This document shows positions 10,703 through 61,930 of a stretch of DNA of 61,930 nucleotides, one piece after another. Source of the stretch: Rhodothermales bacterium (GTDB taxonomy: Bacteria > Bacteroidota > Rhodothermia > Rhodothermales > Bin80); NCBI GenBank assembly GCA_022820435.1, contig JAJEFL010000191.1, positions 1 through 61,930 of the forward strand, read 5' to 3'. The notes beneath the pieces were generated by a model, which searched no databases, had not been told where the DNA came from, and was given only the letters and a program-made list of their open reading frames with translations. Position numbers and translations under genes: made by a program. Positions within the stretch are counted from its first letter, which is position 1; each line of letters begins with the position of its first letter.

Positions 10703-10717
10703 ATTTTTCATTATAAC

Positions 10718-10753
10718 AAAAAAAAGCCCCAGACTCTCTGGGGCTTTTTTTTT
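10718..10753. terminator. Intrinsic terminator, potentially bidirectional
   Basis: A8-GCCCCAGA-ctc-TCTGGGGC-T9, 15 nt after the TBDR stop. Confidence 0.92.
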
Positions 10754-11147
10754 GCCGCGGGCGGACGGCGGGACTGGCAGCAGCCGAGAGCACGGCCTGC
10801 CTTCCACCGGTGGACAAATTTTTGCAGAGATGTGTCTTCCTGATTCGCAGAGTAAGGGCAGTTCTGTCGGTCCAACGTTTTGACCATGTTGTCCAATAAA
10901 CGGATTCAGGCACAGAGTCTCTTCAGGGGCAGGTAAAGGAATGCCGCTCCGCTGCCAGATTCTATACGGCTTAAATGCCGCAAGCCGAAATTCCCGCAGG
11001 ACAAGCGTGACAAAATTTCGGTGAGCGCGTATGATGGCCTGTGATCGGGGTTTTAATCTGAGGCAGCCAGCACAGAACGTAACGCTGCACAGATAAAAGT
11101 GAAACGGTGGAAGTAGGGAGTTAGACGGATCATGATTTGAACATAGA

Positions 11148-11675
11148 ATGGCCTTGAGCAAATTTAGTCCAACCCTTGTGAAGCGTGCTCAGGACGGCGA
11201 CGAAGCCGCCAGGAATTTACTCCTTGGACGGTTAGGGAAGGTGTTTAAGAATTACTTTCAGGCGAAAATCGGTAATCAGGCGGTTGCAGACGACTTGGTG
11301 CAGTGTTCGCTGTTGCGGGTTCATTCCGGCCTGGCTGCATTAAAACAGCCGGATAAGTTCAAAGCATTTGCAATGAAGGCGGCCCTGTTTGAACTGCATG
11401 ATTACTATCGGGGACGGCATTCGTCCAAGGAAAAGACCTATGAGCCGCAGATGCTTCCCGAAAAACAAAATTCATCGGATGAATGGTCCGGGAGCAAATT
11501 TGATGTAGAACGGGCGCTGGAGACGCTCACTCCACACGCCAGACGCATCCTGGAACTTCGTGAGCATGGATACAAATACAGAGAGATTGCCGAGATACTC
11601 GAAACGACCGAAACCGCCGTCAAAATGCAGGTCAAACGCGCGTTTGAGAAAATGAGATCTATATTTGCAGATTAG
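11148..11675 (+). CDS. ECF RNA polymerase sigma-70 factor
   Basis: AQDGDEAA, ADDLVQ (region 2) and YREIAEILETTETAVKMQVKRA (region 4); lies next to a FecR gene. Confidence 0.9.
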   Translation: MALSKFSPTLVKRAQDGDEAARNLLLGRLGKVFKNYFQAKIGNQAVADDLVQCSLLRVHSGLAALKQPDKFKAFAMKAALFELHDYYRGRHSSKEKTYEPQMLPEKQNSSDEWSGSKFDVERALETLTPHARRILELREHGYKYREIAEILETTETAVKMQVKRAFEKMRSIFAD

Positions 11676-11729
11676 CTGTTACCTTTCGTACCTTTCCTGC
11701 GTCCTAGGCGTACGGATCCCTGTTTTGGA

Positions 11730-12842
11730 ATGGACAAATCTGAGTTAATAAAAAAAGTGCTTTGTGAAGAAGCACTCACCGCCGAAGAAAGAAAGGCGCA
11801 CACCGAGAATCTGGAAGCGGATCCGCGGTTGGCGCGTTCGCTGGCGGGCTGGCAGCGGCTCCGGACCTCTCTGCGGAACCGAATTCCCAGCGCCCGTGAT
11901 TTTGTGCTCCATGCATTTGCACTTGGAGGGCATGCAGAGGATTTGAGTGATGAGGAGGCGCAAGAGGTAAGTGAGAAGTGGAAAAATCTTGATCCGGTGA
12001 TCCAGTCGCATCCAGGCTTTTCGGAAGTCTGCACTCAGATTGAACAGGATCGGGAAGATTTTCTTGAGTGCTGGGAAGCTGAGGATCAACCGTCCTTTTC
12101 CGGCGTGTTCCCGCTGCGGATGCCCCGAATGTCTCGGATCGCCGCCGCCATTACTGTGCTGGTGGTCTCTGCGATTACGGTTATTTTTTTGCTGAATCGG
12201 GGAGATACAACGCTCCAGATGGTGGACGCAGATCCAGGCGAATACGAGCGTGTCCTTCTTCCGGATGGCTCGGTTGCACATCTCAATGGACCGGCAACGC
12301 TCCAATTTGAGGATGGAGAGAGTTTTGCGCGTTCGGTCGCGCTGACGGGGAGCGCATTTTTTGACATTATGCATAAGCCGGATCAATTTTCGGTCCAGAC
12401 CGGGGAGGCGGTTGCCCGAGTGCTCGGTACACGCTTTGGAGTGCGTTCAATGAGTGGACTGACCCAGATTATTTTGGAGAGCGGACGGCTGGAGGTCGCT
12501 TCCATCACCAAAACCCCGCAGAGTGTTGTGCTTGTACCCGGACAGATGACGAGCGTAGCACAGGGAGCCACCACGCCAACTTCGCCCGTAAAGGTGAGTA
12601 TAGAAGATCAACTGGGATGGACCGGGTTTGTTTTTTTCAGGGAAACCCCGTTGCGGAAGGCGGCGGTCCTGCTTTCTTCAAGCCGAAGTGTGCGAGTTGA
12701 GGTGGCCCCGTCTCTGGTTAATGAAATGGTCACCGGCACTTTCGCGCCAGATATGACGGTGGAAGAGATCCTGAATGCACTTGCGCTTGCCCTGAATGCC
12801 AGAATTCTGTCCGAAGCGGGGACCTATCACATCGTTCCATAA
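11730..12842 (+). CDS. FecR-family anti-sigma/sensor protein
   Basis: Single transmembrane helix, then LPDGSVAHLN, LTGSAFFDI, VLGTRFGV and FRETPL. Confidence 0.88.
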   Translation: MDKSELIKKVLCEEALTAEERKAHTENLEADPRLARSLAGWQRLRTSLRNRIPSARDFVLHAFALGGHAEDLSDEEAQEVSEKWKNLDPVIQSHPGFSEVCTQIEQDREDFLECWEAEDQPSFSGVFPLRMPRMSRIAAAITVLVVSAITVIFLLNRGDTTLQMVDADPGEYERVLLPDGSVAHLNGPATLQFEDGESFARSVALTGSAFFDIMHKPDQFSVQTGEAVARVLGTRFGVRSMSGLTQIILESGRLEVASITKTPQSVVLVPGQMTSVAQGATTPTSPVKVSIEDQLGWTGFVFFRETPLRKAAVLLSSSRSVRVEVAPSLVNEMVTGTFAPDMTVEEILNALALALNARILSEAGTYHIVP

Positions 12843-12910
12843 GGGTCGGTTTGGAACATGAATGGCGGTAACGTGTAATGCGCACATGAAATGCACATTA
12901 CACTTCGGCA

Positions 12911-15580
12911 GTGTTTTTTTGGAAGCAATCCCTTTGTCTGTATCTGGTCGCGGTCTGTGCAGGTATTAGCCTGATAAGGACCTCCTGTGCTCAGGATATT
13001 TCGGTGGATATATCCGGAGAGACGCTCTCGCAGGCTCTGGATGACTTTGCAAGTTCATATCGCGTGAACCTTGTCTACGCCCGGCGGCAGGTAGACGGGC
13101 TTCGGGTTACATGTAGCTATCGCGGCACGGATCTGCAAGCCGCATTGATGTGCATTCTGTCTGGACAGAATCTTCGCGTGATCCGGTTAAAAAGGCGGCA
13201 GTATGTACTTGTGGACACGGATAGAGGAGAGTCTGAGAATTCCGCAGAAGTCCGTTTGGGGACGCTAAATGGATTTGTGGTGGATTCCCTGTCCAAAGAG
13301 ACGCTGCCGGGGGCGCACATATATCTGCCCAGACTTGCTATTGGTGGAGCAACCAATGAAGCGGGATACTATGCAATCCCATCCCTGCCGCCCGGTCAGT
13401 CTTATCAGGCAAGGATCTCCTTTCTGGGCTATACCCCCCTGGATACACTACTTGAAATTTCCGGAGAGCCAGCCACGATTCAACTGCGCCGTCAGACATT
13501 GGAGGGGAAAACCGTTCTGGTCAGTTCAGATCGCCGCATCCCGTATGAGGTAGCACCGGGTATTCGCCAGATTCCAGTGAACCGGATCAGTAAGCTGCCG
13601 GGTTTCCCTGGAGAGGCGGACCTGCTTCAATCTCTTCGCTGGCTTCCCAGTGTCCAGCGGGTACGCACCAATCAGGGGGGCTTGGTTGTTCGCGGTGGAG
13701 AGCCGGATCAGGTGCAGTATTTGATTGACGGTGCTCCCATCTATCACATGTGGCACATTGCAGGCCTGCTCTCAGTCTATCAGTCCGAAGCGTTCAAAGA
13801 TGTGCGGTTATACCGGGGGACCTTTCCGGCGGAGCACGGCGGGCGCCTGTCTGCAGTTCTGGATGCAGAACTGAAAGATGGGTCCATGGATCAGATCACA
13901 GGACTGGTCGGCGTAGGTCTGGTCAGTGCACGCGCATTTGTTGAGGGGCCAATCACGAAAAAACTGTCCTTTATGGTATCAGGACGGCGATCCTATCTGG
14001 ATCGGATTATTGGGCACACGCATGTGGTTATTGATGGGGGGGCACAGGATACCATGCGTACAGGTGTCTACCTGTATGATATCAGTACGAAACTGGCATG
14101 GCGCCCCTCTCCAAGGCAGCGGCTCACCGTGGGAATCTACGGGAGTTCGGATGATCTGGATATTCGGCTGCCGGTAGATCTGACCGCTTTGGGTTCCGCC
14201 AGTTCGATCCTTCCCCTAGGCAGTTGGTTACGCCCCTCAAATCTTTTTTTTGAGTTTGATACCCGATGGAGTAATCGCCTGATCAGTGCACGCTACCGGT
14301 ATCTGCACGCAGATCGTCTATTCGTGAGCGCAACATCGTATGCGACCTCCTATCGGGCGCATGAACGCATCTTTGTTCGTCCAACGACCAGTTCGTCCGT
14401 GAATTCGGAGTATGGGGTGAGTATACTGGATATTGGCGTGAAACTGGACATTGATTATTATCTCTCTCTGGCAAACCATATTCGGGCAGGCATCTCACTG
14501 GTCCAGCGTACCTTCTCCAGTGAATTAGATGCATTTATTTTGCAAACCAATATCATCTCCGAAAGTATAGATGAGGACAGTTCACTGGATAATACCGAGA
14601 TTATTCTGTACGCACAGAATACCTGGACTCCAACGCCCAGATTACAGATCCAGCCGGGAGTTCGTGTCAGTCAATTGCGGGGGCGTAAAGACTTTCGACT
14701 AAGCCCCCGTCTGGGCATTCAATATGACCTGAATCAGGCGAGTATCTGGGTGGCAACCGGTGTGAATGTACAGTATCTGCATCAGGTGCGGGATCGTTAC
14801 TCGGTACTGTATGATTTGATTTCCTACCGCTGGGTGCCTGCCAGCCGTTCCGTAAAGCCTTCCTACAGTTACCACGCCTCCGCGGGCGGCAGCATATTAT
14901 GGGGAACCTCCTTTACGGCAGATATAGGCCTTTACCTTCATCGGACACATGGGCTTTTACTTCCGCGGAATGAAGGGCAGAGCGGAGACAGGCTACTTGG
15001 CCCCGGTATTGAACTGGGTACGATACTCGGCCAGTATACCCGGGGGAAGGCAGTGGCACACGGACTGGAGGTCAATCTTCAGTATGAGCGGGGGAGTTCT
15101 CTCGTCTGGATCAGTTATGCTGCCGGCAGATCCCGCAGCCGAGCACCTGAACTCGGAGAAAGGCAGTTCCGTCCGGGACGGTTTGATGTCCCTCAGCAAT
15201 TTCAGATTGCCCTGCAGCGCACGAAAACAAAGTGGTCGTACGGGGTGAACGGGAACTGGCGCAGCGGGTATCCCGTTACAGTTCCCGAGGCCCGCTATGC
15301 AGTAGGGGATCCCCTGTCGGAAATACCAGAGCGGTTTCTTTACTTCCCCACCATTAATAATGGCCGATTGCCCGCATATATAAATTTCGGGGTACAGGGA
15401 GGCTATCAATTAAATGTGGGCAATGTGGCGGTGCAATTCCGGCTGGAAGTCAATAACATCACCTTTCGCCGGAATGTGATTGGGCGTGTATATGATCCCA
15501 CCCTCCCCGACGAGGTCTTCGTCACATCCAGAAAGGGACTCCCCCTGTATCCACTATTTGAAATCACTGCACGATTCTAG
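12911..15580 (+). CDS. TonB-dependent transducer-type receptor (STN-like N-terminus)
   Basis: TLSQALDDF N-terminal signalling domain; VRGGEPDQ...LIDG, FPAEHGGRLSAVLD; C-terminal Phe. Confidence 0.88.
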   Translation: MFFWKQSLCLYLVAVCAGISLIRTSCAQDISVDISGETLSQALDDFASSYRVNLVYARRQVDGLRVTCSYRGTDLQAALMCILSGQNLRVIRLKRRQYVLVDTDRGESENSAEVRLGTLNGFVVDSLSKETLPGAHIYLPRLAIGGATNEAGYYAIPSLPPGQSYQARISFLGYTPLDTLLEISGEPATIQLRRQTLEGKTVLVSSDRRIPYEVAPGIRQIPVNRISKLPGFPGEADLLQSLRWLPSVQRVRTNQGGLVVRGGEPDQVQYLIDGAPIYHMWHIAGLLSVYQSEAFKDVRLYRGTFPAEHGGRLSAVLDAELKDGSMDQITGLVGVGLVSARAFVEGPITKKLSFMVSGRRSYLDRIIGHTHVVIDGGAQDTMRTGVYLYDISTKLAWRPSPRQRLTVGIYGSSDDLDIRLPVDLTALGSASSILPLGSWLRPSNLFFEFDTRWSNRLISARYRYLHADRLFVSATSYATSYRAHERIFVRPTTSSSVNSEYGVSILDIGVKLDIDYYLSLANHIRAGISLVQRTFSSELDAFILQTNIISESIDEDSSLDNTEIILYAQNTWTPTPRLQIQPGVRVSQLRGRKDFRLSPRLGIQYDLNQASIWVATGVNVQYLHQVRDRYSVLYDLISYRWVPASRSVKPSYSYHASAGGSILWGTSFTADIGLYLHRTHGLLLPRNEGQSGDRLLGPGIELGTILGQYTRGKAVAHGLEVNLQYERGSSLVWISYAAGRSRSRAPELGERQFRPGRFDVPQQFQIALQRTKTKWSYGVNGNWRSGYPVTVPEARYAVGDPLSEIPERFLYFPTINNGRLPAYINFGVQGGYQLNVGNVAVQFRLEVNNITFRRNVIGRVYDPTLPDEVFVTSRKGLPLYPLFEITARF

Positions 15581-42469: not shown

Positions 42470-43690
42470 CTATTCCCTTGCGATGGGAATCTGGGTTAAA
42501 TGCTGCTGAATCGCACCAATCATGCTTTGTGTAAGCGCAAGATTGTTTTTCTCTGCCGTCCATACTTCGTGGAATCTTGCGACTGTCTCGGCAGCTACAT
42601 CCAGTACAAGTTTTTGCGGCAGGCGTGCTTTTGCTGCCAGATGGGAAAGTTCATCCCGCGAAAATTCTGCAAAACGTTTTGTACGGCTGAATTTTAGTGC
42701 AAAAAATTCATCAGGGATATAACAGATGGTTGAGATAAAATCATAGGCGGGAGCCAGAGATGCAGTATGTTGATCCCGATAGATGAGTGACCAATTCTTC
42801 AGATGCGCATCTGCATTACCGATGAGTACATTAAAAACCAGTCGCCGGATCAATTCTTCAATGTCCGCCTGTTGGCCCTCCACGCCCACAATGCCTCCGA
42901 TAGTCCGCATGGAGGCTTTGTCGTATTTGTACTCTGGATAGATTCGGAAAATCTGTGCGAAGTCCTCAACATGAACAGGGGTTCTATCGATCATCCGGTC
43001 AAACCGGTCAATCACAAACGCATGGATACCGAAGGCTTCAATTCCAGAGGGCAGGTTTTCGATCTGATCAACCTTGATCAACTCGGTATGCGGTACATCG
43101 ATTCCAATTGCCCGTGCGAGCTCCATCATGCTATACTCGTTTTGGGGGAGTGCATTGAACTGTTGAGATGGCAACTTAAGGATCCGGTCGCCACCGATGC
43201 CCTGTACGGGAATGGTGATCCCTTTGCCTGTATTCTTTATTGCAGAGAGTTTTAACTGCACGCCTGCCAGAGAAAACCGCAAGGTCTTTTCCTGAAATTT
43301 TTTTTGCTTTGCCCCACTCTTTGCAGTGGGCGGGAATTCCTGCCCGTCAGCAGGTTGCACAATCACTGCACCCGGCAAATCCTGTCCGAGTATCCAAAGA
43401 AGAAAGAACTCACGCACACTCTTGACCCGCGCCTGTTCTGCCAAATAATGACGCAAAGGCCCTTCCGGTAATAGATTAGAGAACCAGGGAATGAGCCGTG
43501 TCTGAATCGTACCAAAATTGGTCATTAACTGCCCAAGCGAGTCCTTGAATCCCAGTCCAAGAAGCGGACGGTGTGGATCGTTGATATAGTCCTGTGTGAA
43601 GGCAAAGAGGCTGCGGTCTGCACCAATGTGAGTCAGCGTTCCAATTTGTTTTCCATGGAGAAGCACTTCCAGGATGGAAACATCAGACAT
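42470..43690 (-). CDS. hipA: HipA-family Ser/Thr kinase toxin with fused N-terminal coupling domain
   Basis: FSNLLPEG, SLAGVQLK, IGNADAHLKN and LAPAYD; ATG 43690 overlaps the upstream gene's stop. Confidence 0.9.
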   Translation of the reverse strand: MSDVSILEVLLHGKQIGTLTHIGADRSLFAFTQDYINDPHRPLLGLGFKDSLGQLMTNFGTIQTRLIPWFSNLLPEGPLRHYLAEQARVKSVREFFLLWILGQDLPGAVIVQPADGQEFPPTAKSGAKQKKFQEKTLRFSLAGVQLKLSAIKNTGKGITIPVQGIGGDRILKLPSQQFNALPQNEYSMMELARAIGIDVPHTELIKVDQIENLPSGIEAFGIHAFVIDRFDRMIDRTPVHVEDFAQIFRIYPEYKYDKASMRTIGGIVGVEGQQADIEELIRRLVFNVLIGNADAHLKNWSLIYRDQHTASLAPAYDFISTICYIPDEFFALKFSRTKRFAEFSRDELSHLAAKARLPQKLVLDVAAETVARFHEVWTAEKNNLALTQSMIGAIQQHLTQIPIARE

Positions 43691-44282
43691 GACCATCCTC
43701 CTCGTCAAGAGAATAGGCGGGTTTTTCGGATAGACTTTGATTGCGCGGTGATTGTGAGCGTTCAATTTGGTTTCGCAGGGCTTCGGTTCGCTTCAAAAGG
43801 GCTTCAAATTTTTCAGCATCAATTGGCATAGCATGAAGCCGTTCCAGATATTTGACCCATCTGGTATAGTTTTTCGTCTGATCCGCCGGAATACGAATCC
43901 GCTCAAGAAAACGGATCAGTTCCTGCAGGTATTGAACCTGCTTTGCGGTTTGATCTAATTGAGTAAGTCTCTGCGTTACATGATCAACGGCAATTTTGCC
44001 CCGGGCAGAGAGTTTACGGCTGATCGTACTCTTTGGCGATGTGGTCCGAATAATTGACTGAACGGCGGGGAGGCATGTTCGGGGCACAAGTTCCAGTTCC
44101 AGTTCCAGTGCTCGAAACAGTGCCACCAAACTCGAAAGCCGCAGATCAACGGCACCGTTTTCAAATTTTGAAATTTGCGCCTGCTGTACACCAGAGATTT
44201 CACTCAATTCCCGTTGACTCAGTCCCAACCTCACTCTCGCTTTTCGGAGAGCAGTACGGAGATGATCGGATTCGTAACTCAT
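43683..44282 (-). CDS. XRE/HipB-like helix-turn-helix antitoxin
   Basis: GLSQRELSEISGVQQAQISKFENG; directly upstream of and overlapping hipA. Confidence 0.82.
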   Translation of the reverse strand: MSYESDHLRTALRKARVRLGLSQRELSEISGVQQAQISKFENGAVDLRLSSLVALFRALELELELVPRTCLPAVQSIIRTTSPKSTISRKLSARGKIAVDHVTQRLTQLDQTAKQVQYLQELIRFLERIRIPADQTKNYTRWVKYLERLHAMPIDAEKFEALLKRTEALRNQIERSQSPRNQSLSEKPAYSLDEEDGHV

Positions 44283-46149: not shown

Positions 46150-46647
46150 TTGAATTACTTCACACACTCACCTCGCATACGGGATCCCCAAAAATCCGTT
46201 TTGGTGGCTCGCCAGATATTGTGGCTGGTATACAGACATGGCAAAGTCGTGACACCGTTTCAATTAATTAAACTGGCCTATATCAGTCATGGGTGGATGT
46301 TGGCCTTGCATGATCGCTCACTGTTCCGTGAACCGGTGGAAGCATGGCCTTACGGCCCCATTGTGCCCAAGATATATCATAAATTCAGAAAGTTTGGCGG
46401 GAATCAGATCACGGCTTCCCGGAAGGATTACAGGGATCATTTTGACGGGTGTGAGTTAGACATTATGGAGCAAGTTGTCAATGCCTATGGTGACTATACG
46501 GGCATTCAACTGTCCAGTCTCATGCATAAGCATGGAAGTCCCTGGGACACGACGATGACTATGTTGGGCCCGAAGGCAATAATCTCCAACGATTTAATCA
46601 AACTATATTACCGAAGTCTTGTATCTGCCCGGAGATCGCATCGGTAA
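46150..46647 (+). CDS. Panacea (DUF4065/SocA-like) antitoxin-domain protein
   Basis: TPFQLIKLAY, EAWPYGPIVP.IY and LSSLMH..GSPW. Start uncertain. Confidence 0.82.
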   Translation: MNYFTHSPRIRDPQKSVLVARQILWLVYRHGKVVTPFQLIKLAYISHGWMLALHDRSLFREPVEAWPYGPIVPKIYHKFRKFGGNQITASRKDYRDHFDGCELDIMEQVVNAYGDYTGIQLSSLMHKHGSPWDTTMTMLGPKAIISNDLIKLYYRSLVSARRSHR

Positions 46648-51031: not shown

Positions 51032-52315
51032 TTGATGCTGTGCCCGTTTAAGGATTATAAGACAAAGTTGCTGGTTTGTTCAAGGAAACGGCAGTATGCG
51101 GATATCTGCTTTCGTCTGCGAGGCGACAGGAAGACCTGCCGGTTCCTGAGTGAACCGGCGGGTCTTAACCGGTATCTCTGGAATGCGGCGCTGGCAAAGT
51201 ATCCGTCCGAAAATCTATCTATACCAAGGATGTTCATATATGGATACTGAAGATGTGATCTGTACCTGTCGCTAGACAGTACCAGTATGGAGTTGGATCC
51301 AAAACAATAGGGGATGATCTGCATTGGTCGTCCTGTGATCTGGAAAGAGGCAGGGGCAGGTCTAAATTCCAGAAAGGATCTGGCGGATGCCTACAAGCAG
51401 CTCTTCAAGAAAAAAGGTAAGGCAGGCAAAAGCTTCGCCGTAGACTTATCTGGAGGACGCAGATTTTCAAAGAACGGGTATTTTCGGTTAAAGCCGGGCA
51501 TGTATGTGAAGATGCTGCGATTTTATTGAGTGAACCGTTACACAAACCCCGTGCCCAAGACGGCCCGCATCTTTGAAGAGAAAGGAAACTGGTACATGAC
51601 GGTCGTCTACGAAGTGGACGCGACCCTGCAAGACGCGGACGGCATTGGGGTCGACCGTAATTGCGGGCAGGTTGCGGACAGTGCGGGAAGGATCTTCTAT
51701 CTGACCGACACCTCCGGTATTGAAAAGCGCATTCAGAAGCTTCAACGCCGACTATCGAAAAAACAGAAAGGAAGTCATTTCTGGAGGAGACGAAAGAAAA
51801 CCATCGCACGCCATGAACGCAAGATCAAGAACATCCGAAGGAATGACTTGCGTCATATTGCCTTATCGCTCACCGAAATCTCTGCGCTTGTAATCCTGGA
51901 AGACCTGAAAACCAATGGTATGACCGCAAGCGCGAAAGGAACGGTCGAGAATCCGGGCAGGAAGGTGAAGCAGAAAAGGGGACTGAACCGCTCGATACTG
52001 GGAACAGGATGGGCGATACTGGAGCAGTTCCTGCGAGAGCGAGATGTGGTGATCAAGGTGCCCCCGCATTCTACATCACAGACATGTAGCAAGTGTTCCT
52101 GTGTGAACGCAAAGAACCGGCAAAGGCAGTCCGAGTTTCTATAACTGGCGTGCGGGTATCAAGCGAATGCGGACACGAATGCGTCCGTAAATATCCAGGC
52201 ATCGGGGGATGGCATGCTGGCACGAATTGTGCCGAACGGATTGTGGAGCCTATGGTTGACCTGTCCTTGCGGAGCGCAAGCCTGCAATGACAGGCAACGG
52301 GCGATGAAACACTAA
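51032..52315 (+). pseudogene. tnpB: Decayed IS200/IS605-family tnpB (RNA-guided nuclease), with no tnpA nearby
   Basis: One frame with AGLNRYLWN, KDLADAY, GVDRN, ILEDL, TSQTCSKC and CGY..NADTNAS, interrupted by stops at 51248, 51308, 51527 and 52142. Confidence 0.88.
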
Positions 52316-54458: not shown

Positions 54459-55502
54459 TCACCGCTCGTTACGATTCTGTATGACAGTGTCCACGAACTC
54501 CAATACCGCTGAGCATGCTTTTTCCCATTCTTTACTATTCTTGAAGGACAGCGAGTGGCCGCCGTGCGGCCATTCCCTGAGATCGACTGACTCACCAAGT
54601 CGGCCAAGCGCATCGTCTCCGCCCAACTGCTCGGCTTGCGGCAGTATGCTCACGCTATAGATGCCTTCCCCGAGGTAACCGGCCTGTACGCCGAAATAGC
54701 CTTTCCAACTCTTTGAACCATTGGGCCTCGGATCCATAAACCGGAAACTGATCCCTGTTTTGCCTATCTGCTCCCATGGGCCCTGCTGTGGTAGACGCTC
54801 TCGAATGTCGTTGCACACACGATCAAAGTACTGTTCGTAGCTGTGCTCTTTCAAATAGTGTCGCAAGGCTTGGCGTTGCTCAGCCGCAGTGACGGCACGA
54901 GGGCGCATCTGGTTTCCGCCATCTGGACTTACCTTTATTTGTCGAGCCAACAAGGTCTCGCCATCCCGACGGTACCCATGGAAGGTGATGACCGAGAGTT
55001 CAATTGCCCCTGCTGATACGAATTGCGCCATTCGTTCGGTGGCTTCATCAATGCCAAAACCGACCAAGGCCATCCGCGGCGGTAACAAGCGGGACAGATC
55101 ATCATCTCCGAACGTGTCGGAGTACCACTGTTCGAAGTTCTCAATTCGCGGAATACCAGCTTCCCCCGAGCGATCCGAAATGTGTTTGGCAACTTCTGCC
55201 GGGGTCATGGAATTCAGTGCCGAAGCATAGTCCAGAATCTGCGTCACGGCATCCCGTGCGAGGTTGCCACGCTTCAATTCGTAGACTACCAGGCGTCCGT
55301 CGCCGTCAACCGCAAGTAGGTCCAACCATCCTCCAGCGGTTGGTGTCTGTCGCCCAACCAACTGTAGCCCAGTCTCAATCATTTCCGGGTTGGAAACCAG
55401 AACGTTCTCAAACTCCCATTCGGTAGGCATCTGTGAGAGCTTTGGGACGGGTTCGATTCTGTTTGATCCGTCTACAGCCCACAACTTGAGTTCCTGAATC
55501 AT
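54459..55502 (-). CDS. NucS/DUF91-like PD-(D/E)xK endonuclease domain plus an unknown C-terminal domain
   Basis: LVGRQ...LDLLAVD.DG.LVVYELKRG...AVTQILDY. Confidence 0.75.
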   Translation of the reverse strand: MIQELKLWAVDGSNRIEPVPKLSQMPTEWEFENVLVSNPEMIETGLQLVGRQTPTAGGWLDLLAVDGDGRLVVYELKRGNLARDAVTQILDYASALNSMTPAEVAKHISDRSGEAGIPRIENFEQWYSDTFGDDDLSRLLPPRMALVGFGIDEATERMAQFVSAGAIELSVITFHGYRRDGETLLARQIKVSPDGGNQMRPRAVTAAEQRQALRHYLKEHSYEQYFDRVCNDIRERLPQQGPWEQIGKTGISFRFMDPRPNGSKSWKGYFGVQAGYLGEGIYSVSILPQAEQLGGDDALGRLGESVDLREWPHGGHSLSFKNSKEWEKACSAVLEFVDTVIQNRNER

Positions 55503-55858
55503 CGCTTGGTAACCCGCTGATAAAGTACTTGTTTCGGTGTCGTGTCTCCAATAATATCACTCATGCCCGTACTGACTCTCTTTTCCATCGGTTTAAGGAT
55601 CAAGTGTCACAATATACTTCACTCGTCTGAAAAGATCAGTTGCACCTCCATCAAACTGTACAACCATAGTGTCAACACACAATTTATAGAGCCACTAATT
55701 CAGTGACCACATAGCCTCGGAGGGGGTTTTGAAGTTCATTGCTTAATCTAAGCCGTCAACGTTGCCATGTTGAAAATCTGCCTGATCATGGGTCTATCGG
55801 GAGTGGAACCTTCGAAAAGGTACTATGGTATACAAATTTATAAAGTTAGGTATCTTTT

Positions 55859-57139
55859 ATGCAAAACTTCCATCGTACACATGTCAAACGCTTGATAGAA
55901 TTTATATCAGGTACTTCCGACATGCGGCTTATCGCCATTATTGGTCCTCGTCAGGTTGGCAAAACGACCATTGCGCTTCAGGCCCGCCAGAAGTTGGTTG
56001 AAGCAGGGTTTACATGTCAGTACATTGCCATCGACAATCCACATCTAAATCAGCCGGGCTGGCCTGGAGATGCAGGCATCTCTGATACCACGCTGATCAA
56101 GAAATTTGCGAATCCAAAGACTCTTGTGAACATATGGGAGAGTGCCCGTGAGGCTTCGCTAAACTCTCCCCGGGGGCATGTTTTGTTTCTGGATGAAGTT
56201 CAACTCATTCCACAGTGGTCAAATTATGTGAAGGGGCTGTGGGACAGAGATCGTAGGGACGGCTATCCCCTCCGTGTGGTAATCCTGGGATCAGCAGTCT
56301 GGCAGATGCTTGTTGGCCGTAACGAGAGTCTCACAGGTCGTTTCCGTGAGTTACCCGTCAGTCACTGGTCATTTAGAGAAATGACCAAGGTGTTCGGCCT
56401 GACGGTTGAGGAATTTATGTTTTATGGCGGCTATCCTGCCTCCCTGCCCGACGAATCGGAAAAATCGCCGTTTGACTATTGGCGCGACTATATTGGAAAG
56501 ACAATTGTGGAATCAGTAATTGGTCGGGACATCTTGTTGCTGAAACAGATCAAGAAACCTGCCCTGATGCGCCAATTAATAGACATCGCCCCCAACTACT
56601 CTGGTCAGATCATGGCATACAATAAACTTTTGGGGTTACTTCAAGATAAGGGCAATGCAACTACGGTTAGGCATTACTTAGACTTACTTTCCGATGCAGG
56701 TCTGACGACCACGCTATCTCGATATACTCCAAAACCACACTTGGGCATCGCATCTCGTCCCAAGTTTAATGTTCTAAACACGGCATTGATGACGGCATTA
56801 TCAGGTTATTCGTTCGAGGAGGTCCAGATTGATCGATCCTTTTGGGGCCGTGTTGTAGAGAGTGCAGTGGGGGCCCATCTATGTAACACGCGGAATACGG
56901 CTACCCATATTCATTATTGGCGTGACAAGAATGGCGATTATGAGGTTGATTTTGTTATCTCACGCGGCCCCCATCTTGTCGGCGTGGAGGTTAAGAGCGG
57001 CAAGCAGCAGACACATCGCGGATTAGAGGCATTTAAGGATCGTTTTCCACATGCCAAAACAATGATCGTGGGTCCAGGTGGCTTTCCGTTCCGTGAGTTT
57101 TTGTCGTTGAATACCGACGAGTGGATTGAATATCTGTGA
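55859..57139 (+). CDS. AAA_14-type ATPase with C-terminal DUF4143 nuclease-like domain
   Basis: Walker A GPRQVGKTT, Walker B FLDEVQ, GS...ESLTGR, YGGYP and YWRD...EVDFV...VEVKSG. Confidence 0.88.
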   Translation: MQNFHRTHVKRLIEFISGTSDMRLIAIIGPRQVGKTTIALQARQKLVEAGFTCQYIAIDNPHLNQPGWPGDAGISDTTLIKKFANPKTLVNIWESAREASLNSPRGHVLFLDEVQLIPQWSNYVKGLWDRDRRDGYPLRVVILGSAVWQMLVGRNESLTGRFRELPVSHWSFREMTKVFGLTVEEFMFYGGYPASLPDESEKSPFDYWRDYIGKTIVESVIGRDILLLKQIKKPALMRQLIDIAPNYSGQIMAYNKLLGLLQDKGNATTVRHYLDLLSDAGLTTTLSRYTPKPHLGIASRPKFNVLNTALMTALSGYSFEEVQIDRSFWGRVVESAVGAHLCNTRNTATHIHYWRDKNGDYEVDFVISRGPHLVGVEVKSGKQQTHRGLEAFKDRFPHAKTMIVGPGGFPFREFLSLNTDEWIEYL

Positions 57140-60100
57140 ATCCAACCATGCAGCGTATCTCTCGTACGGTCACACTCATTGAACCCCAGAATGATCTGCG
57201 TTTTGGGAAAGCTGGACTGTCATTGCAGGACTTTGATTGTGATCATGGGTATGTTCTTCTGGGGGAGCCGGGAATGGGCAAGAGCACAGAGTTTGAATCT
57301 GCAATTGATGGATTTGATGGTAGACATTGTATTTTGGCCCGAAGATTTATCCGGGCCAATTTTGACCGTCACCCAGAATGGCGAACCCAAACAATTTTCA
57401 TTGACGGGCTTGATGAAATGCGTGTTGGTGGGGGAGACCCAAGAGCAGTATTGGACAAAATCATTTATGGTCTGGAAACCTTGGGGAGACCCAAATTCCG
57501 GCTGTCCTGCCGCGCTGCCAACTGGTTGGAGGCTGGTGACCGGAATGAGCTCGGTTCGCTTTTAGGCCTAAACGAAATTCCTGTACTTCAATTAGATCCG
57601 CTGAATTATGAGGGCATTCGGGAGATTGTTTCTCTACGGCGGCAGGATGCAAATTCGTTCATTCAGCAAGCCCATGAGCGCGGCATGGATGCCTTACTCG
57701 GGAATCCGCAACTTCTTGACTTCCTGATCACATCCGTCAAGGAAAAGGGCTGGCCTGACAGCCAGTCGAAAATGCATGAAAACGCCTGCCGGGAACTCGT
57801 CCGAGAACGAAATGACGAACATCGTGATGCCCGTTCATCCGATTCACTGCAATCCCAGGAAGCAATCTTAACCGCAGCTGGAAAGCTCTGTGCATGCATG
57901 CTGATCGCAAACAGGACTGGTTGGGCGAGCAATGATACGGATGACTCCGAGATTCTATCTGTCCGTGATTTGGAAAGCGACCAAGGTTTCCCCATCCAGG
58001 CAGCATTTGACTCAAGGATCTTTGAAGGTTCGCCCAGTTCCAAAGTTCCGATCCATCGCCTTATCGCCGAATTCCTTGGAGCCCGCTATCTGCACAAAAA
58101 AATCCAGAGAGGCCTAAGCGTCCGGCGTGCTCTCGCCCTTCTCATGGAGCACAATGGAATTTTTTTACCCGATCTAAGGGGACTGGCTGCCTGGCTCGCT
58201 GCGTTCAACGAGCAGGCAAGAGCAATTCTGATACAGATCGCTCCAATAACGGTGGCTTTCAATGGAGATGCCAGCGGTTTCAGTCCTATTGAGCGAAGTA
58301 AATTACTCGCGAAACTGGAACAACAAATCCATTTAAATTCCGAATGGCCTTCTGCTGTAGCCCTTCGTGCCTTGACCGGCAATGAGGGCGTACCAATTAT
58401 CCAGCATTTAACGAATTCACATGAACGTTCAAAAAACAGGCAAACGCTGGTTTATTTGCTCCTTCGGGGATGCTCACAAATGTATCTTGATACGAGCATG
58501 TCAGACTGGGAGACCGATCACGAAAGCCTGCTGAATATTGTTCGTGATCATAGTTGGCAATCAAGTGTTCGTTGCGAGGCACTCGGTGCTTTGAGCCGGA
58601 TATCTCATCAGATTCCGCAGTGTAGTGCTCTATTGCGAGACCTCCTTGAGGATGTGCAGGAAAAACGTATATCGGACGAAGAGCACGATCTGCGGGGCAC
58701 ATTACTTCATCTTATGTACCCTGACAGACTACGCCCTGAGGAGATATGGGATTATCTCGTGGCGGGGCCGGTTACTGCTTATTTGGGTGGTTATCGAAAC
58801 TTCTTTGCAAGACTCGTTGATAGGTCAAATGAGAGCGATGTCAAAGAATTACTCAACTCTCTTTGCGACCGTGCCTCCGAAGCCATTCCAAAATTAGAGG
58901 ATCAAAAACTTGCAGATGTTGTGCTCCGGCTTCTTGCAAGGGGGTTGGAATTGTTTGGAGGTGAATTGAGTATCCCGGAGTTGTACCGATGGTTTACACT
59001 GGTTGAATTCTACCATAATTCGTTACAACTTTCCCCAGTTCACACTTCAAACTCAAGTTTTAGCCAGCACGATGAAGCGGACAGTGCAATCCGTAATTGG
59101 CTGAATCAGCATAAGCGTATCCAGTACAGTCTTATTGAACATGGTCTATCCATTGAAGAAGCGAGCATTGGGAGCAAAGTTCTTATTGAAACTATAGGAT
59201 GCAAATTCGTGGGCAGGAATGCGCCAGAAGGATTTCGATTGTGGTGTCTTGAGCGTGCGGTACAGCTCTGGGACTCAAATCAAAATGTGGCAGGAGAACT
59301 CGCATCATGGTCCGTCTCTAATCTGATGCAAGTGGGCGGGGAGCCGCCCCTCTCGGATAAGGAGGTCAGTTCCGTAGTGTCTGGTACGCCTGGATTGGTC
59401 AAGTGGAATGATCAACGCCTAAAGATTAGGGCCCAAGATGAACTTGAGTTCAGTGAAATCAGGAAGAAACAGGCGGAAATCCGAAGTGTCCACCAAAGAC
59501 AAAAGCAGGAAAAACTTGAAATTCTTCGTCAACAACAAACTGAGTTGGAAAAGGGGCAATGCATGCCTGTAATTCTTGATGAACTTGCCCATGTTTACTT
59601 TGACAACTCTGGCACAAATGAAAATAATCCAGAGACTTGCCTGCGGTCATATTTTGAAGATGATGAGGGACTCGTTGAGGCAACGCTGGATGGGTTTCGC
59701 AGCCTGCTGGACCGGGATGATCTCCCGGATCTTGGTCAAATTGCCCAGTTCTATGAAGATGGTCATCGATCCTATTTTGCACTCCCTTTTCTTGCAGGAA
59801 TGGAAGAGGCATACAAGGTTAATGAGGATCTGAGCCATCTCTCCGAAACGGGGATTCGGCGTGCATTGGGATTTTATCTGACTACAGACTCTCCTCGTCA
59901 GCACTACTATCATTTAATCAATTATATGGGCGGTGACAGCACATCTCCCGCATGGTATGAGCAGGCATTAGAGCGCTATCCAGAGGCTGTGGCTGATTCG
60001 TTGGTTTCTGTGCACAACGCAACGGTACGCTCCAAAAATCCGCCGAATTCCGAAATGTACAAGATGGTCGATGATTCAGCCTATGCTGATGTGGCAAAAC

Positions 60101-61347
60101 TTGCTGTATCCCGAATGTTTACGGTATTTCCCTCCCGATGCAGTGCCCGTAAACTGGAATCTCTAAGTTTGGTCATCTGGAGTGCGATTCGGAACAACGG
60201 AATGTCTAAAAAAGAATTGCGGAGTATTATTTCAAAACGACTCAATCGTAAGCGGATGGATATAGGCCAACAAGCCCAATGGCTAGGTGCAGGGTTGTTC
60301 GTCGACAGAGACATCTATATTCCAATGCTGATCGACTTTCTCTCTGCCGGAGACGAAATTCGCATGCATCATGTTATTCATTTTCTCGTTCCTACGAACT
60401 ATAAACTGCTGACTCCACAAAACATCAATGAATGGACTTCTGACGAGATTCGCCAGCTTATCCAAACATTCGGGAGACGAATGTACCCATTTATTTCTCA
60501 AGAACGTGCAGGTATTGTTAGGGGCGAGCAGAGAATCAGAATGGAATTTCAGTTTCTCCTCTCACACTGGCTCGGAGAACTAAAAAAGCGCATCTGTGAT
60601 GAGGCAAGGAAGAATCTGGATATATTGGCATCCGATTCTGATCTATCAATATGGGAGCGAGAGATTGTACTCGCTCAGGGAGAACAAGCTAGACATCGCC
60701 GAGCGGCAAAGCATTCGGATCTAAGCTTAGAGAAAATTCAGAAAACCCTGAATTGTGGCTTTCCGGCAAATGCTGCCGATCTTGTCAGTCTGACGCTTGA
60801 TGTCCTTGAAAAGTTAGCAGGCGATATACGTAATGGTCCAGCCAGTGCATGGCATCAATACTGGGACTGGGAGCGGAAGCCTCGTAGGCCCTCACAACCA
60901 AAACCCGAAAACGATTGCAGAGATGTATTACTTTCCGGCTTAGCAACGATACTTGAAGGGTATCAGGTTGATGCACAGCCGGAGGGTCGCTACGCAGATG
61001 AACGAAGGGCGGATATCCGAATATCGTACGGCTCCGATCTAGCGATCCCGATTGAAATCAAGAGAAATTTAAGCATAGATTTGTGGCGCGGCATCTCTGA
61101 GCAACTTGTACCAAAATACACACGAGATCCAAAGTCTCATGGCTATGGAATTTATCTGGTGTTCTGGTTTGGGGCAGACTCCATGAAGGTTGGGGCCCCA
61201 GATGGAGGGATTCCCGAAGAAGCAATAGAACTAAAGGATGCACTGGAAAGGCGGCTTGATCCAGAACTGCGCAAGAGGATCCATGTTGTTATCATTGATG
61301 TGGCTCCGTCTGGAAGATTAGCGGAGAATAAAGGGACGGACACCTGA
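57136..61347 (+). CDS. STAND/NACHT NTPase with long helical region and C-terminal PD-(D/E)xK nuclease
   Basis: GEPGMGKS, FIDGLDE, LSCR, GNPQLL and HRLIAEFLGARYL; C-terminal ENDCRD...RADI...IPIEIK...EQL..KY...GIYLVFWFG. Confidence 0.82.
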   Translation: MNPTMQRISRTVTLIEPQNDLRFGKAGLSLQDFDCDHGYVLLGEPGMGKSTEFESAIDGFDGRHCILARRFIRANFDRHPEWRTQTIFIDGLDEMRVGGGDPRAVLDKIIYGLETLGRPKFRLSCRAANWLEAGDRNELGSLLGLNEIPVLQLDPLNYEGIREIVSLRRQDANSFIQQAHERGMDALLGNPQLLDFLITSVKEKGWPDSQSKMHENACRELVRERNDEHRDARSSDSLQSQEAILTAAGKLCACMLIANRTGWASNDTDDSEILSVRDLESDQGFPIQAAFDSRIFEGSPSSKVPIHRLIAEFLGARYLHKKIQRGLSVRRALALLMEHNGIFLPDLRGLAAWLAAFNEQARAILIQIAPITVAFNGDASGFSPIERSKLLAKLEQQIHLNSEWPSAVALRALTGNEGVPIIQHLTNSHERSKNRQTLVYLLLRGCSQMYLDTSMSDWETDHESLLNIVRDHSWQSSVRCEALGALSRISHQIPQCSALLRDLLEDVQEKRISDEEHDLRGTLLHLMYPDRLRPEEIWDYLVAGPVTAYLGGYRNFFARLVDRSNESDVKELLNSLCDRASEAIPKLEDQKLADVVLRLLARGLELFGGELSIPELYRWFTLVEFYHNSLQLSPVHTSNSSFSQHDEADSAIRNWLNQHKRIQYSLIEHGLSIEEASIGSKVLIETIGCKFVGRNAPEGFRLWCLERAVQLWDSNQNVAGELASWSVSNLMQVGGEPPLSDKEVSSVVSGTPGLVKWNDQRLKIRAQDELEFSEIRKKQAEIRSVHQRQKQEKLEILRQQQTELEKGQCMPVILDELAHVYFDNSGTNENNPETCLRSYFEDDEGLVEATLDGFRSLLDRDDLPDLGQIAQFYEDGHRSYFALPFLAGMEEAYKVNEDLSHLSETGIRRALGFYLTTDSPRQHYYHLINYMGGDSTSPAWYEQALERYPEAVADSLVSVHNATVRSKNPPNSEMYKMVDDSAYADVAKLAVSRMFTVFPSRCSARKLESLSLVIWSAIRNNGMSKKELRSIISKRLNRKRMDIGQQAQWLGAGLFVDRDIYIPMLIDFLSAGDEIRMHHVIHFLVPTNYKLLTPQNINEWTSDEIRQLIQTFGRRMYPFISQERAGIVRGEQRIRMEFQFLLSHWLGELKKRICDEARKNLDILASDSDLSIWEREIVLAQGEQARHRRAAKHSDLSLEKIQKTLNCGFPANAADLVSLTLDVLEKLAGDIRNGPASAWHQYWDWERKPRRPSQPKPENDCRDVLLSGLATILEGYQVDAQPEGRYADERRADIRISYGSDLAIPIEIKRNLSIDLWRGISEQLVPKYTRDPKSHGYGIYLVFWFGADSMKVGAPDGGIPEEAIELKDALERRLDPELRKRIHVVIIDVAPSGRLAENKGTDT

Positions 61348-61432: not shown

Positions 61433-61930
61433 ATGTCAGACGGATTACCTCAGCAAGATGCCCAACTGCTTGACGGCCGTGAGGAGTTTCACGTTCACGG
61501 GCATGGAGTTACGCAATCACTTCAGTTGATTGACTATTGGAGGTAGTCAGGATCCCTCCTTGCGGACAATACAACACGTGGGATTCTTGCGGAGTTTCTA
61601 GTTGCTGCGGCACTGGATCTGCATAAAAAGCCGAGACGGGAATGGGATGAAAGTGACATTCGGACGGCCGGAATTTCCATTGAGGTGAAATGCTCGGCGT
61701 ATTATCAGACATGGCAACAGTCCAAACCGTACACGATCACATTTGGTATCGCTCCTCACAGAAGTTGGAACGCGGAAACCGGAGAGTTTAGAGAGGGAAT
61801 CAAGCGATGGGCTGACCTTTATGTGTTCTGCGTTTTTCGGGGGATCAGTTCGGAGGAATGTCTGGATTTGAGCAAATGGGACTTTTATGTCATTGCCACC
61901 AGGATCTTAGACAGGAAAATTCCAAACCAG
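61433..61930 (+). pseudogene. PD-(D/E)xK-like nuclease gene with an in-frame TAG; runs off the window edge
   Basis: MSDG...IDYWR*SGSLLADNTTRGILAEFLVA...EWDESDI...IEVKCSAY.Q.W...ADLYVFC; TAG at 61544-61546. Not in the ORF track. Confidence 0.68.

Follow-up and report, generated by a model that had tools for sequence, protein, structure and literature searches.

Do two genes that share four nucleotides (nts), one for an ATPase-nuclease and the other for a protein of 1403 amino acids (aa) resembling the NOD-like receptors (NLRs) of animals, work together as one anti-phage system, or are they two defence genes that happen to sit on one transcript? The question is posed by a stretch of 61,930 nts from a Rhodothermales bacterium (contig JAJEFL010000191.1 of assembly GCA_022820435.1; this whole stretch, the entire contig, is referred to below as the window). 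The genes probably form a two-gene anti-phage module, in which a receptor of the Erebus/Avs10 type works with a partner of the PDC-S01 type and serves for phage-protein sensing, NACHT-driven assembly and DNA cleavage by a C-terminal DNase. Taken singly, receptor family and ATPase candidate are known; their fixed pairing and the palindrome that paired and solo ATPase genes share seem to be undescribed. A literature search that combined Erebus or Avs10 with PDC-S01 or DUF4143 found nothing, the supplements of PMC12803255 and the paper that named Erebus lying outside that search. The genes, each an open reading frame (ORF), are:

55859..57139, + strand: gene 1, ATPase-nuclease ORF, 426 aa, ATG start
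57136..61347, + strand: gene 2, receptor ORF, 1403 aa, GTG start
57136-57139, + strand: start/stop overlap GTGA, 4 nts common to both ORFs

The junction reads tatctGTGAatcc, in which the GTG of gene 2 (57136-57138) overlaps the TGA of gene 1 (57137-57139). A reading of this DNA from its letters alone (the sequence-only reading) had pointed to this overlap, and the ORF list and the sequence bear it out. Such an arrangement is consistent with translational coupling of both genes. The 4-nt overlap is also present in both other copies in the same genome, and the junctions of 55 of 65 paired loci have a start codon fused to the ATPase TGA stop as ATGA, GTGA or TTGA. With ATG, GTG or TTG fused to the TGA in so many pairs, the overlap is not a product of chance.

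The large protein and its family

What kind of protein gene 2 specifies is answered most directly by the NCBIfam model NF058535, "NACHT domain-containing antiphage protein EruA". The match is full-length and collinear, with residues 30-1389 of gene 2 lying on positions 18-1317 of the 1318-position model, and it scores 742.3 bits (E 1.4e-222), below the curated equivalog cut-off of 1000 bits. The two other copies in the same genome score 734 and 753 bits, and paired relatives from Proteobacteria pass the cut-off (1028-1039 bits); the match of gene 2 to the NCBIfam model HyoA is weaker, at 137 bits. Given the score below the cut-off, gene 2 is filed as a related subfamily and not as an equivalog, its identity to EruA members that pass the cut-off being ~30%. 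On this sequence likeness it likely belongs, as a divergent member, to the bacterial NLR-like receptors of the Erebus/EruA (Avs10) family. Its parts are as follows.

57136..58395, + strand: residues 1-420, NACHT/STAND NTPase module without an N-terminal effector (AlphaFold2, Foldseek)
57262-57288, + strand: Walker A GEPGMGKST, residues 43-51
57403-57417, + strand: NACHT-type Walker B DGLDE, residues 90-94
58396..60768, + strand: residues ~421-1211, all-helical ARM/HEAT-like repeats, the presumed sensor (AlphaFold2 secondary structure)
60769..61323, + strand: residues 1212-1396, PD-(D/E)xK nuclease domain (Pfam 38.1 DUF8371; VIA-align)
residues of the nuclease domain: E1283, D1293, E1307-x-K1309, Q1323, Y1328

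The D[GAS]hDE Walker B signature marks the NACHT clade, according to the Kibby et al. preprint, and gene 2 has it together with a Walker A of the form GxxxxGK[ST]. None of G46, G48, K49, D90, D93 and E94 varies across 38 sequences. The protein was folded with AlphaFold2 as two halves, each from a 46-row alignment, and the predicted local distance difference test (pLDDT) values were 84.5 for the N-half and 86.7 for the C-half. The N-half model has the succession of nucleotide-binding domain, helical domain and winged helix seen in animal NLRs; Foldseek matches it to NOD2 (5irm, E 4e-9), to NLRP9 (E 3.6e-8) and also to NLRP3 and NLRC4, within 78 matches at E ≤0.001, and to Avs4 (8dgf) at E 7e-6. 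The STAND NTPase module proposed from the letters is thereby confirmed as a NACHT fold. The further observation that the Walker A begins about 43 residues in, leaving no space for an N-terminal effector, was equally correct.

The ~900 aa that follow had been described as free of recognisable motifs. AlphaFold2 shows the region (~800 aa) to be made of helical repeats. Only helical-repeat proteins match it, with Foldseek E ≥0.016 and VIA-align Z ≤8.3. Between the paralogues of the same genome the repeats are 44-47% identical, the nucleotide-binding domain 54-61% and the nuclease 55-59%; the helical repeat region is the most divergent part.

For the C-terminal domain the prediction was a nuclease with RADI, IEIK, Q and Y, and all of these are where they were said to be (RADI at 1291-1294, IEIK at 1306-1309, Q1323, Y1328). 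E1283, D1293, E1307, K1309, Q1323 and Y1328 are conserved in sets of 14 and 38 homologues, the RADI/IEIK/Q/Y residues being invariant or nearly so in both. With the C-terminal half, Foldseek returned helical-repeat rows only (E 0.016 or weaker), and the nuclease surfaced just with VIA-align: BstYI at Z 7.7 (root-mean-square deviation 3.6, 132 aligned), Can2 at 7.3, BamHI at 7.2, McrC at 6.8, PaqCI at 6.6, and LlaBIII and BglII at 6.4 each, Z values of 6.4-7.7 being middling by the tool's own scale. All seven of these PD-(D/E)xK nucleases fall on one region, residues ~510-700 of the C-half model. DUF8371 (PF28130) is assigned here by Atlas features (0.97) and is the precomputed label on most homologues. 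The domain has the PD-(D/E)xK fold with its D...ExK, and nuclease activity is predicted from it.

The last ~250 positions of the EruA model are also matched on their own by frames of 225-534 aa (G403:C3:56472-57239, G485:C115 and G524:C86), and DUF8371 proteins of 148-228 aa are listed in Atlas. The short stand-alone matches show that the nuclease module is found outside the receptor too.

Is this order of domains new? The sequence-only reading had taken the order NTPase, sensor, nuclease for a novel inverted layout, and this does not hold. Avs10 (Erebus/Hypnos/bNACHT64) sensed phage major capsid proteins, and effector mutations abolished its cell death, according to the reports concerned (PMC13581612, Nature 2026; preprint PMC12803255). 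One effector mutant is named EhAvs10 E1263A-K1265A in the source data of PMC13581612, a name that places the ExK motif of the tested Avs10 at the C-terminal end, like E1307/K1309 of gene 2. Some bacterial NACHT effectors, Kibby et al. say, sit at the extreme C-terminus. As a layout, the order is known from a minority of such proteins and from one named family. The claim of novelty was to be judged by a full-length match to a system already described, and such a match exists for the large protein and not for the pair.

Comparison with the known receptors brings out what is shared and what is particular. Erebus/Avs10 has the N-terminal NACHT, long helical sensor and C-terminal ExK nuclease of gene 2, and relatives of gene 2 stand in defence islands; the clade of gene 2 differs in its upstream ATPase-nuclease, whereas the best-scoring members of the family (1205-1422 bits) are single genes. 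With Avs1-4 (AVAST) and other NACHT/STAND proteins gene 2 shares the STAND NTPase, the helical sensor and the nuclease effector, and presumably the logic by which a phage protein leads to oligomerisation and this to nuclease activation. In Avs1-4, however, the effector is N-terminal and not C-terminal; the NTPase of gene 2 is of the NACHT type (DGLDE), gene 2 has a seemingly obligate ATPase-nuclease partner, and there is no match to it at the sequence level in PADLOC.

The ATPase-nuclease and its pairing with the receptor

Gene 1 contains the following features, all on the + strand.

55925-56383, + strand: AAA_14 domain, residues 23-175 (Pfam E 7.4e-21, 74.9 bits)
56525-57001, + strand: DUF4143, residues 223-381 (Pfam E 1.3e-27, 96.9 bits)
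55943-55966, + strand: Walker A motif, G29-T36
residues D112-E113, + strand: Walker B motif
residues D364 and E377-x-K379, + strand: nuclease motif

Both Pfam matches exceed their cut-offs, and the PADLOC model PDLC04791 of PDC-S01 matches residues 4-423 on positions 2-394 of 395 (E 6.6e-128); no NCBIfam model matches gene 1. In 38 partners the Walker and nuclease residues are invariant or near-invariant (D364 nearly invariant, E377 and K379 invariant). By its sequence gene 1 is a PDC-S01-type AAA_14-DUF4143 ATPase-nuclease. One report describes PDC-S01 as a single-gene candidate and the fourth most common defence across prokaryotes, and states that most such candidates await validation (PMC12988326). 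Gene 1 resembles PDC-S01 in its full-length match to PDLC04791, in having identical Pfam domains and in a TGAGTAA/TTACTCA-type palindrome upstream, as in solo relatives. It differs in that PDC-S01 is catalogued as a single gene, whereas gene 1 is the first of a conserved pair and belongs to a clade of its own: the receptor follows it in 3 of 3 copies in its own genome and at 73 of 74 evaluable loci.

Those three copies (receptors of 734-753 bits) each have an ATPase of 421-426 aa upstream with the 4-nt overlap. The two outside the window, whose receptors are ~50% and whose ATPases are 55-59% identical to those of the window pair, are:

G000 C21:12296-17745, + strand: second ATPase-receptor pair, same genome
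G000 C17:1301-6768, − strand: third ATPase-receptor pair, same genome

Multiple pairs per genome look like a small paralogue repertoire. One Rhodothermales chromosome carries five related loci (L016, L020, L046, L052, L064).

A scan of one genome per species gave 78 loci, from Rhodothermales, Gemmatimonadota and Proteobacteria, found by two peptide patterns that derive from the clade and bias the set towards it; the upstream ATPase was detected with a hidden Markov model of the three own ATPases. A full ATPase ORF lies directly upstream at 66 of them and a partial or split one at 7 (3 cut by a contig end, 4 split), there is none despite room at 1, and at 4 there is no room, so that the genes are paired at 73 of the 74 evaluable loci across three phyla. 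The conserved linkage on which the proposal of a two-gene unit was to stand or fall is in place. At the exception, L078, no ATPase was found and the tblastn match of the receptor starts at residue 340; at L041 the ATPase is in three pieces. The identities of the ATPases and of the receptors, taken pairwise, go together with r 0.95 (65 pairs).

At four loci (L015, L018, L041 and L078) the tblastn match of the receptor spans 5.9-6.3 kb and not 4.2 kb; the copies there may have been interrupted or have decayed, or extra fragments may lie downstream.

How did the pairing arise? FastTree trees were made of the receptor (53 rows, of which 35 are paired, 15 solo and 3 outgroup; the tool warns of long branches) and of the ATPase (35 paired rows and 20 solo ones, these last from a single phylum). 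In both, one branch (support 99) separates the paired forms from the rest, and one change suffices to account for them, a value as low as which was reached in 0 of 500 shuffles. We read the trees to mean that one Erebus branch took up a PDC-S01 gene once and has kept it since, through much divergence and transfers from phylum to phylum.

Outside that branch both partners are found apart. Across 401 genomes of the phylum of the window, EruA is matched (E ≤1e-50) in 10 and the ATPase (E ≤1e-30) in 63. ATPases beside a receptor score at least 347 bits and all others at most 314, and the listed ATPases in the lower group have no large neighbour; solo ATPases of 39-47% identity are present in ~50 further genomes of this sample. 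In 401 Pseudomonadota, EruA is matched in 23. Pairs there are the near-full-length L123, L124 and L132 plus the fragment L134; no ATPase accompanies L119-L122 (1205-1422 bits, the best EruA matches), L125-L127, L129, L130 or L133, the upstream sequence being only 770 nts long for L126 and only 304 nts for L130. L131 is cut, and L128 comes after an HsdS-like gene. The relatives on plasmids of Pantoea, Vibrio and Bradyrhizobium are solo as well, and a blastn search of E. coli genomes with the top-scoring solo gene, L119, gave no match.

These solo forms are what would be expected if the pair were two independent single-gene defence systems on one transcript, a mini defence island free of interplay. 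Each type does exist alone: the solo Erebus genes include the best EruA matches, plasmid copies beside Ppl and Abi are solo as well, and the ATPase occurs by itself in those ~50 further genomes. Both proteins, moreover, keep their own complete NTPase and nuclease motifs, and clustering of defence genes is common. Loose clustering, however, would predict neither a single origin with retention at 73 of 74 loci in three phyla, nor the start/stop overlap at 55 of 65 junctions, nor co-divergence at r 0.95, and the three paralogues of one genome each keep their own partner. Independence fits the solo forms but not a single origin with near-complete retention, and it is judged unlikely.

Whether the two proteins touch was addressed by a complex prediction of the ATPase with residues 830-1403 of the receptor (its C-terminal 574 residues), a part chosen for conserved patches at ~850-900 and 1000-1050 and for the nuclease. 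The score was 0.56 as against 0.00 for the best control, and the verdict was "weak support", which speaks weakly against independence. Of 157 solved complexes 116 reach the mark, as do 2 of 215 mismatched pairs; 18 of the 157 and both passing mismatches do so at 0.60 or lower (counts that hold roughly, custom alignments having been used here). Agreement between runs extends to at least 37% of contacts, and the partner has a pLDDT of at least 77. The model suggests contact of the ATPase with this C-terminal part of the receptor.

The palindrome before gene 1

Is there a sign of joint control? Directly before the pair lies an element that is not part of either gene.

55818..55855, strand not assigned: imperfect two-tier palindrome AGGTACTATGGTATACAAATTTATAAAGTTAGGTATCT, ~38 bp, centre 55836/55837, ending 3 nts before the ATPase ATG

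Anchored on the Walker A codon, 68 loci (the window copy and 67 others) align to AAAAAGTACTnTnTTGAGTAAATTTAnTCAnTAnAGTAnnTT. In the 16 symmetric column pairs, 73.2% of cells are complementary, compared with 37-44% when the partner column is slid, and cells with changes on both sides number 110 as against 32-58 slid; 0 of 500 shuffles come up to the observed pairing. The pairing scheme, based on one member and passed through a 50% filter, is biased in favour of a palindrome. Dyad symmetry has been kept by coordinated changes in the arms. Between subclades the arms covary, as GAGTA/TACTC, TGAAC/GTTCA and TTTATA/TATAAA. Folded as RNA, the window copy gives -9.1 kcal/mol (z -2.3), the C17 copy -12.7 kcal/mol and three relatives -17 to -23 kcal/mol (z -6.4 to -8.3). 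Sigma-70-type promoter sites were at chance level, 7 being found and 7.8 expected.

The canonical form is TGAGTAAATTTACTCA, scanned for as GAGTA-N2-8-TACTC with one mismatch allowed. It lies upstream of 19 of 21 solo ATPases, with 4 matches in the remaining 79.5 kb of those loci, and of 23 of the 68 paired ATPases (the rest have variant arms), with 96 in 882 kb of background. Upstream of solo Erebus genes it was found at 0 of 10. Its presence before solo ATPases and absence before solo Erebus genes show that the palindrome belongs to the ATPase lineage. The simplest reading of these sequences is a candidate operator, for autoregulation by the ATPase, or a 5′ hairpin that limits translation.

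In many of the solo ATPase loci L096-L118, 2-3 tandem TGAGTAA/TTACTCA half-site pairs stand just before the start codon; at L106 their place is taken by three TTTGAGAATTT direct repeats. The arrays look like a family-wide candidate operator of PDC-S01-type ATPases.

An element that travels with the ATPase lineage and abuts its start codon gives some room to the view that the ATPase is mainly a regulator or restraint and not a second effector: an autoregulator acting at the palindrome, an antitoxin-like inhibitor of the receptor nuclease, or a protein that the receptor guards. The upstream position of gene 1 and its translational coupling to gene 2 would also fit a stoichiometric partner, and guard-type logic is known for eukaryotic NLRs. 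Set against this are the residues of the ATPase itself, since conservation of its Walker motifs and its nuclease residues (D364 nearly so, E377 and K379 without exception) throughout the 38 partners argues that it still cuts nucleic acid and hydrolyses nucleoside triphosphate (NTP). A mainly regulatory partner is distinctly unlikely.

Proposed working and surroundings of the pair

How might the two-gene module work? Gene structure, domain folds, conserved catalytic residues, single-origin linkage and the cis element with its provenance are established directly; defence activity, the capsid trigger, a physical complex, autoregulation and the role of the partner are what we infer in the following scheme. 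The helical repeats would bind a phage protein that is conserved; by analogy with the tested Avs10 this is most likely the major capsid protein of HK97 fold, a tentative assignment given the ~30% identity to that family and the sensor being the most divergent part. On binding, the N-terminal NACHT NTPase would drive oligomerisation and so bring the C-terminal PD-(D/E)xK domains together as an active DNase, by which the infection would be stopped, probably at the cost of the cell. The product of gene 1 would be co-translated with the receptor, probably bind it, and either gate it or serve as a second effector directed at DNA; via the palindrome of its own lineage before the operon, it most likely also controls how strongly both genes are expressed. 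Its role may be that of co-effector, gate, guarded protein or mainly regulator.

Several results pull away from such a module. On the side of the receptor, function is transferred across ~30% identity, as follows from a score of 742 against a cut-off of 1000 bits; the equation of EruA with Erebus, which may be right, rests on the likeness of the names, and a literature search found no defence paper that uses the names EruA or HyoA. Gene 2 has no match in PADLOC and no usable match among Protein Data Bank (PDB) sequences, whether searched as a single protein or as a profile. In the Pfam release searched (one without PF28130), no family, NACHT (PF05729) included, matched it at E ≤0.1. This last result is put down to the sequence model being too distant, the tests by motif and by fold both pointing to NACHT; the solo relative L119 itself reaches PF05729 with only E 0.019 (15.2 bits, the cut-off being 26.7). 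On the side of the pairing, the best-scoring EruA genes are solo and the ATPase homologues mostly have no large neighbour; as both partners exist, and presumably work, alone elsewhere, the partner may be dispensable. To this come the clade bias of the patterns behind the 78 loci and the weakness of the predicted contact. Inspection for a paired-specific insertion of more than 5 aa in the receptor, as a docking site, turned up just segments of 4-5 aa. As to the palindrome, the C21 copy folds no better than shuffles, the window copy is imperfect, and the pairing scheme was a favourable one.

A bolder form of the two-gene module unites the candidate operator with the pairing. The PDC-S01 ATPase-nuclease would be a sequence-specific DNA binder that autoregulates via its TGAGTAA/TTACTCA-type palindrome and is at the same time an obligate subunit of a capsid-sensing NLR; or the NLR would guard PDC-S01 against phage inhibitors. 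It is put forward as a speculation, with the chances well against it. If true, the pair would be a two-input immune complex: one input, a protein signal, would come through the receptor, the other, a DNA signal or NTP-driven engagement of DNA, through the ATPase-nuclease, and only their coincidence would fire two different PD-(D/E)xK nucleases. On this view sponge-associated bacteria would possess, in their 3-5 paralogous pairs per genome, a small repertoire of NLRs.

For PDC-S01, a clade that locks it to a receptor family with a known trigger is a concrete handle on its function, and a defined DNA motif is available for probing its binding. The Erebus/Avs10 family, in turn, has a branch that may need a second enzyme and in any case always retains it. 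The C-terminal effector layout was already known before the present locus.

The surroundings of the pair in the window include the following.

54459-55502, − strand: 347-aa NucS_C-like endonuclease-domain protein, divergent neighbour (Pfam E 3.4e-9)
51530-52144, + strand: 204-aa remnant of an IS605 OrfB (TnpB-type) gene, 3.7 kb upstream of the pair
46150-46647, + strand: SocA/Panacea antitoxin-domain protein
42470-44282, − strand: HipA-like kinase ORF (HipA_C, Couple_hipA) overlapping an upstream ORF with a helix-turn-helix (HTH_3) domain, HipBA-type, toxin-antitoxin-like
61685-61930, + strand: ORF of at least 82 aa running off the contig end, no match in Pfam, PADLOC or NCBIfam

The first 200 residues of the divergent neighbour match PADLOC PDC-S11 (E 5.9e-32), and this PDC-S11-like protein is, by sequence, a second defence candidate beside the pair. 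Farther upstream are panC, a WG-repeat gene, the truncated IS605 OrfB gene, the SocA/Panacea gene and the HipA/HTH pair, with fumarase, protease, DHQ synthase and sulfatase genes interspersed among them.

The truncated IS605 OrfB gene, at its distance of 3.7 kb, could be taken to mean that the locus is not immune at all and that the genes are a DNA repair or mobile-element maintenance pair that resembles defence proteins. The full-length match of the receptor, however, is to a family named antiphage, one member of which has been tested; none of the loci listed has a transposase or integrase linked to the pair; the distribution, at 10 of 401 and 23 of 401 genomes, is patchy and transfer-prone; and relatives have defence-island neighbours. 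A non-immune function is very improbable. The neighbours of solo relatives are Ppl, Abi, HsdS and a DUF4011 helicase-restriction endonuclease (REase).

The sequencing runs that contain the stretch are only of DNA and are labelled sponge metagenome, no RNA run being listed. Elsewhere, at L086 (G098; 8849-13999, − strand), a solo EruA gene of 1111 bits comes after the gene for a protein of more than 1716 aa with DUF4011, a superfamily 1 (SF1) helicase, REase MTES_1575 and DUF3320, which may be a defence-type neighbour.

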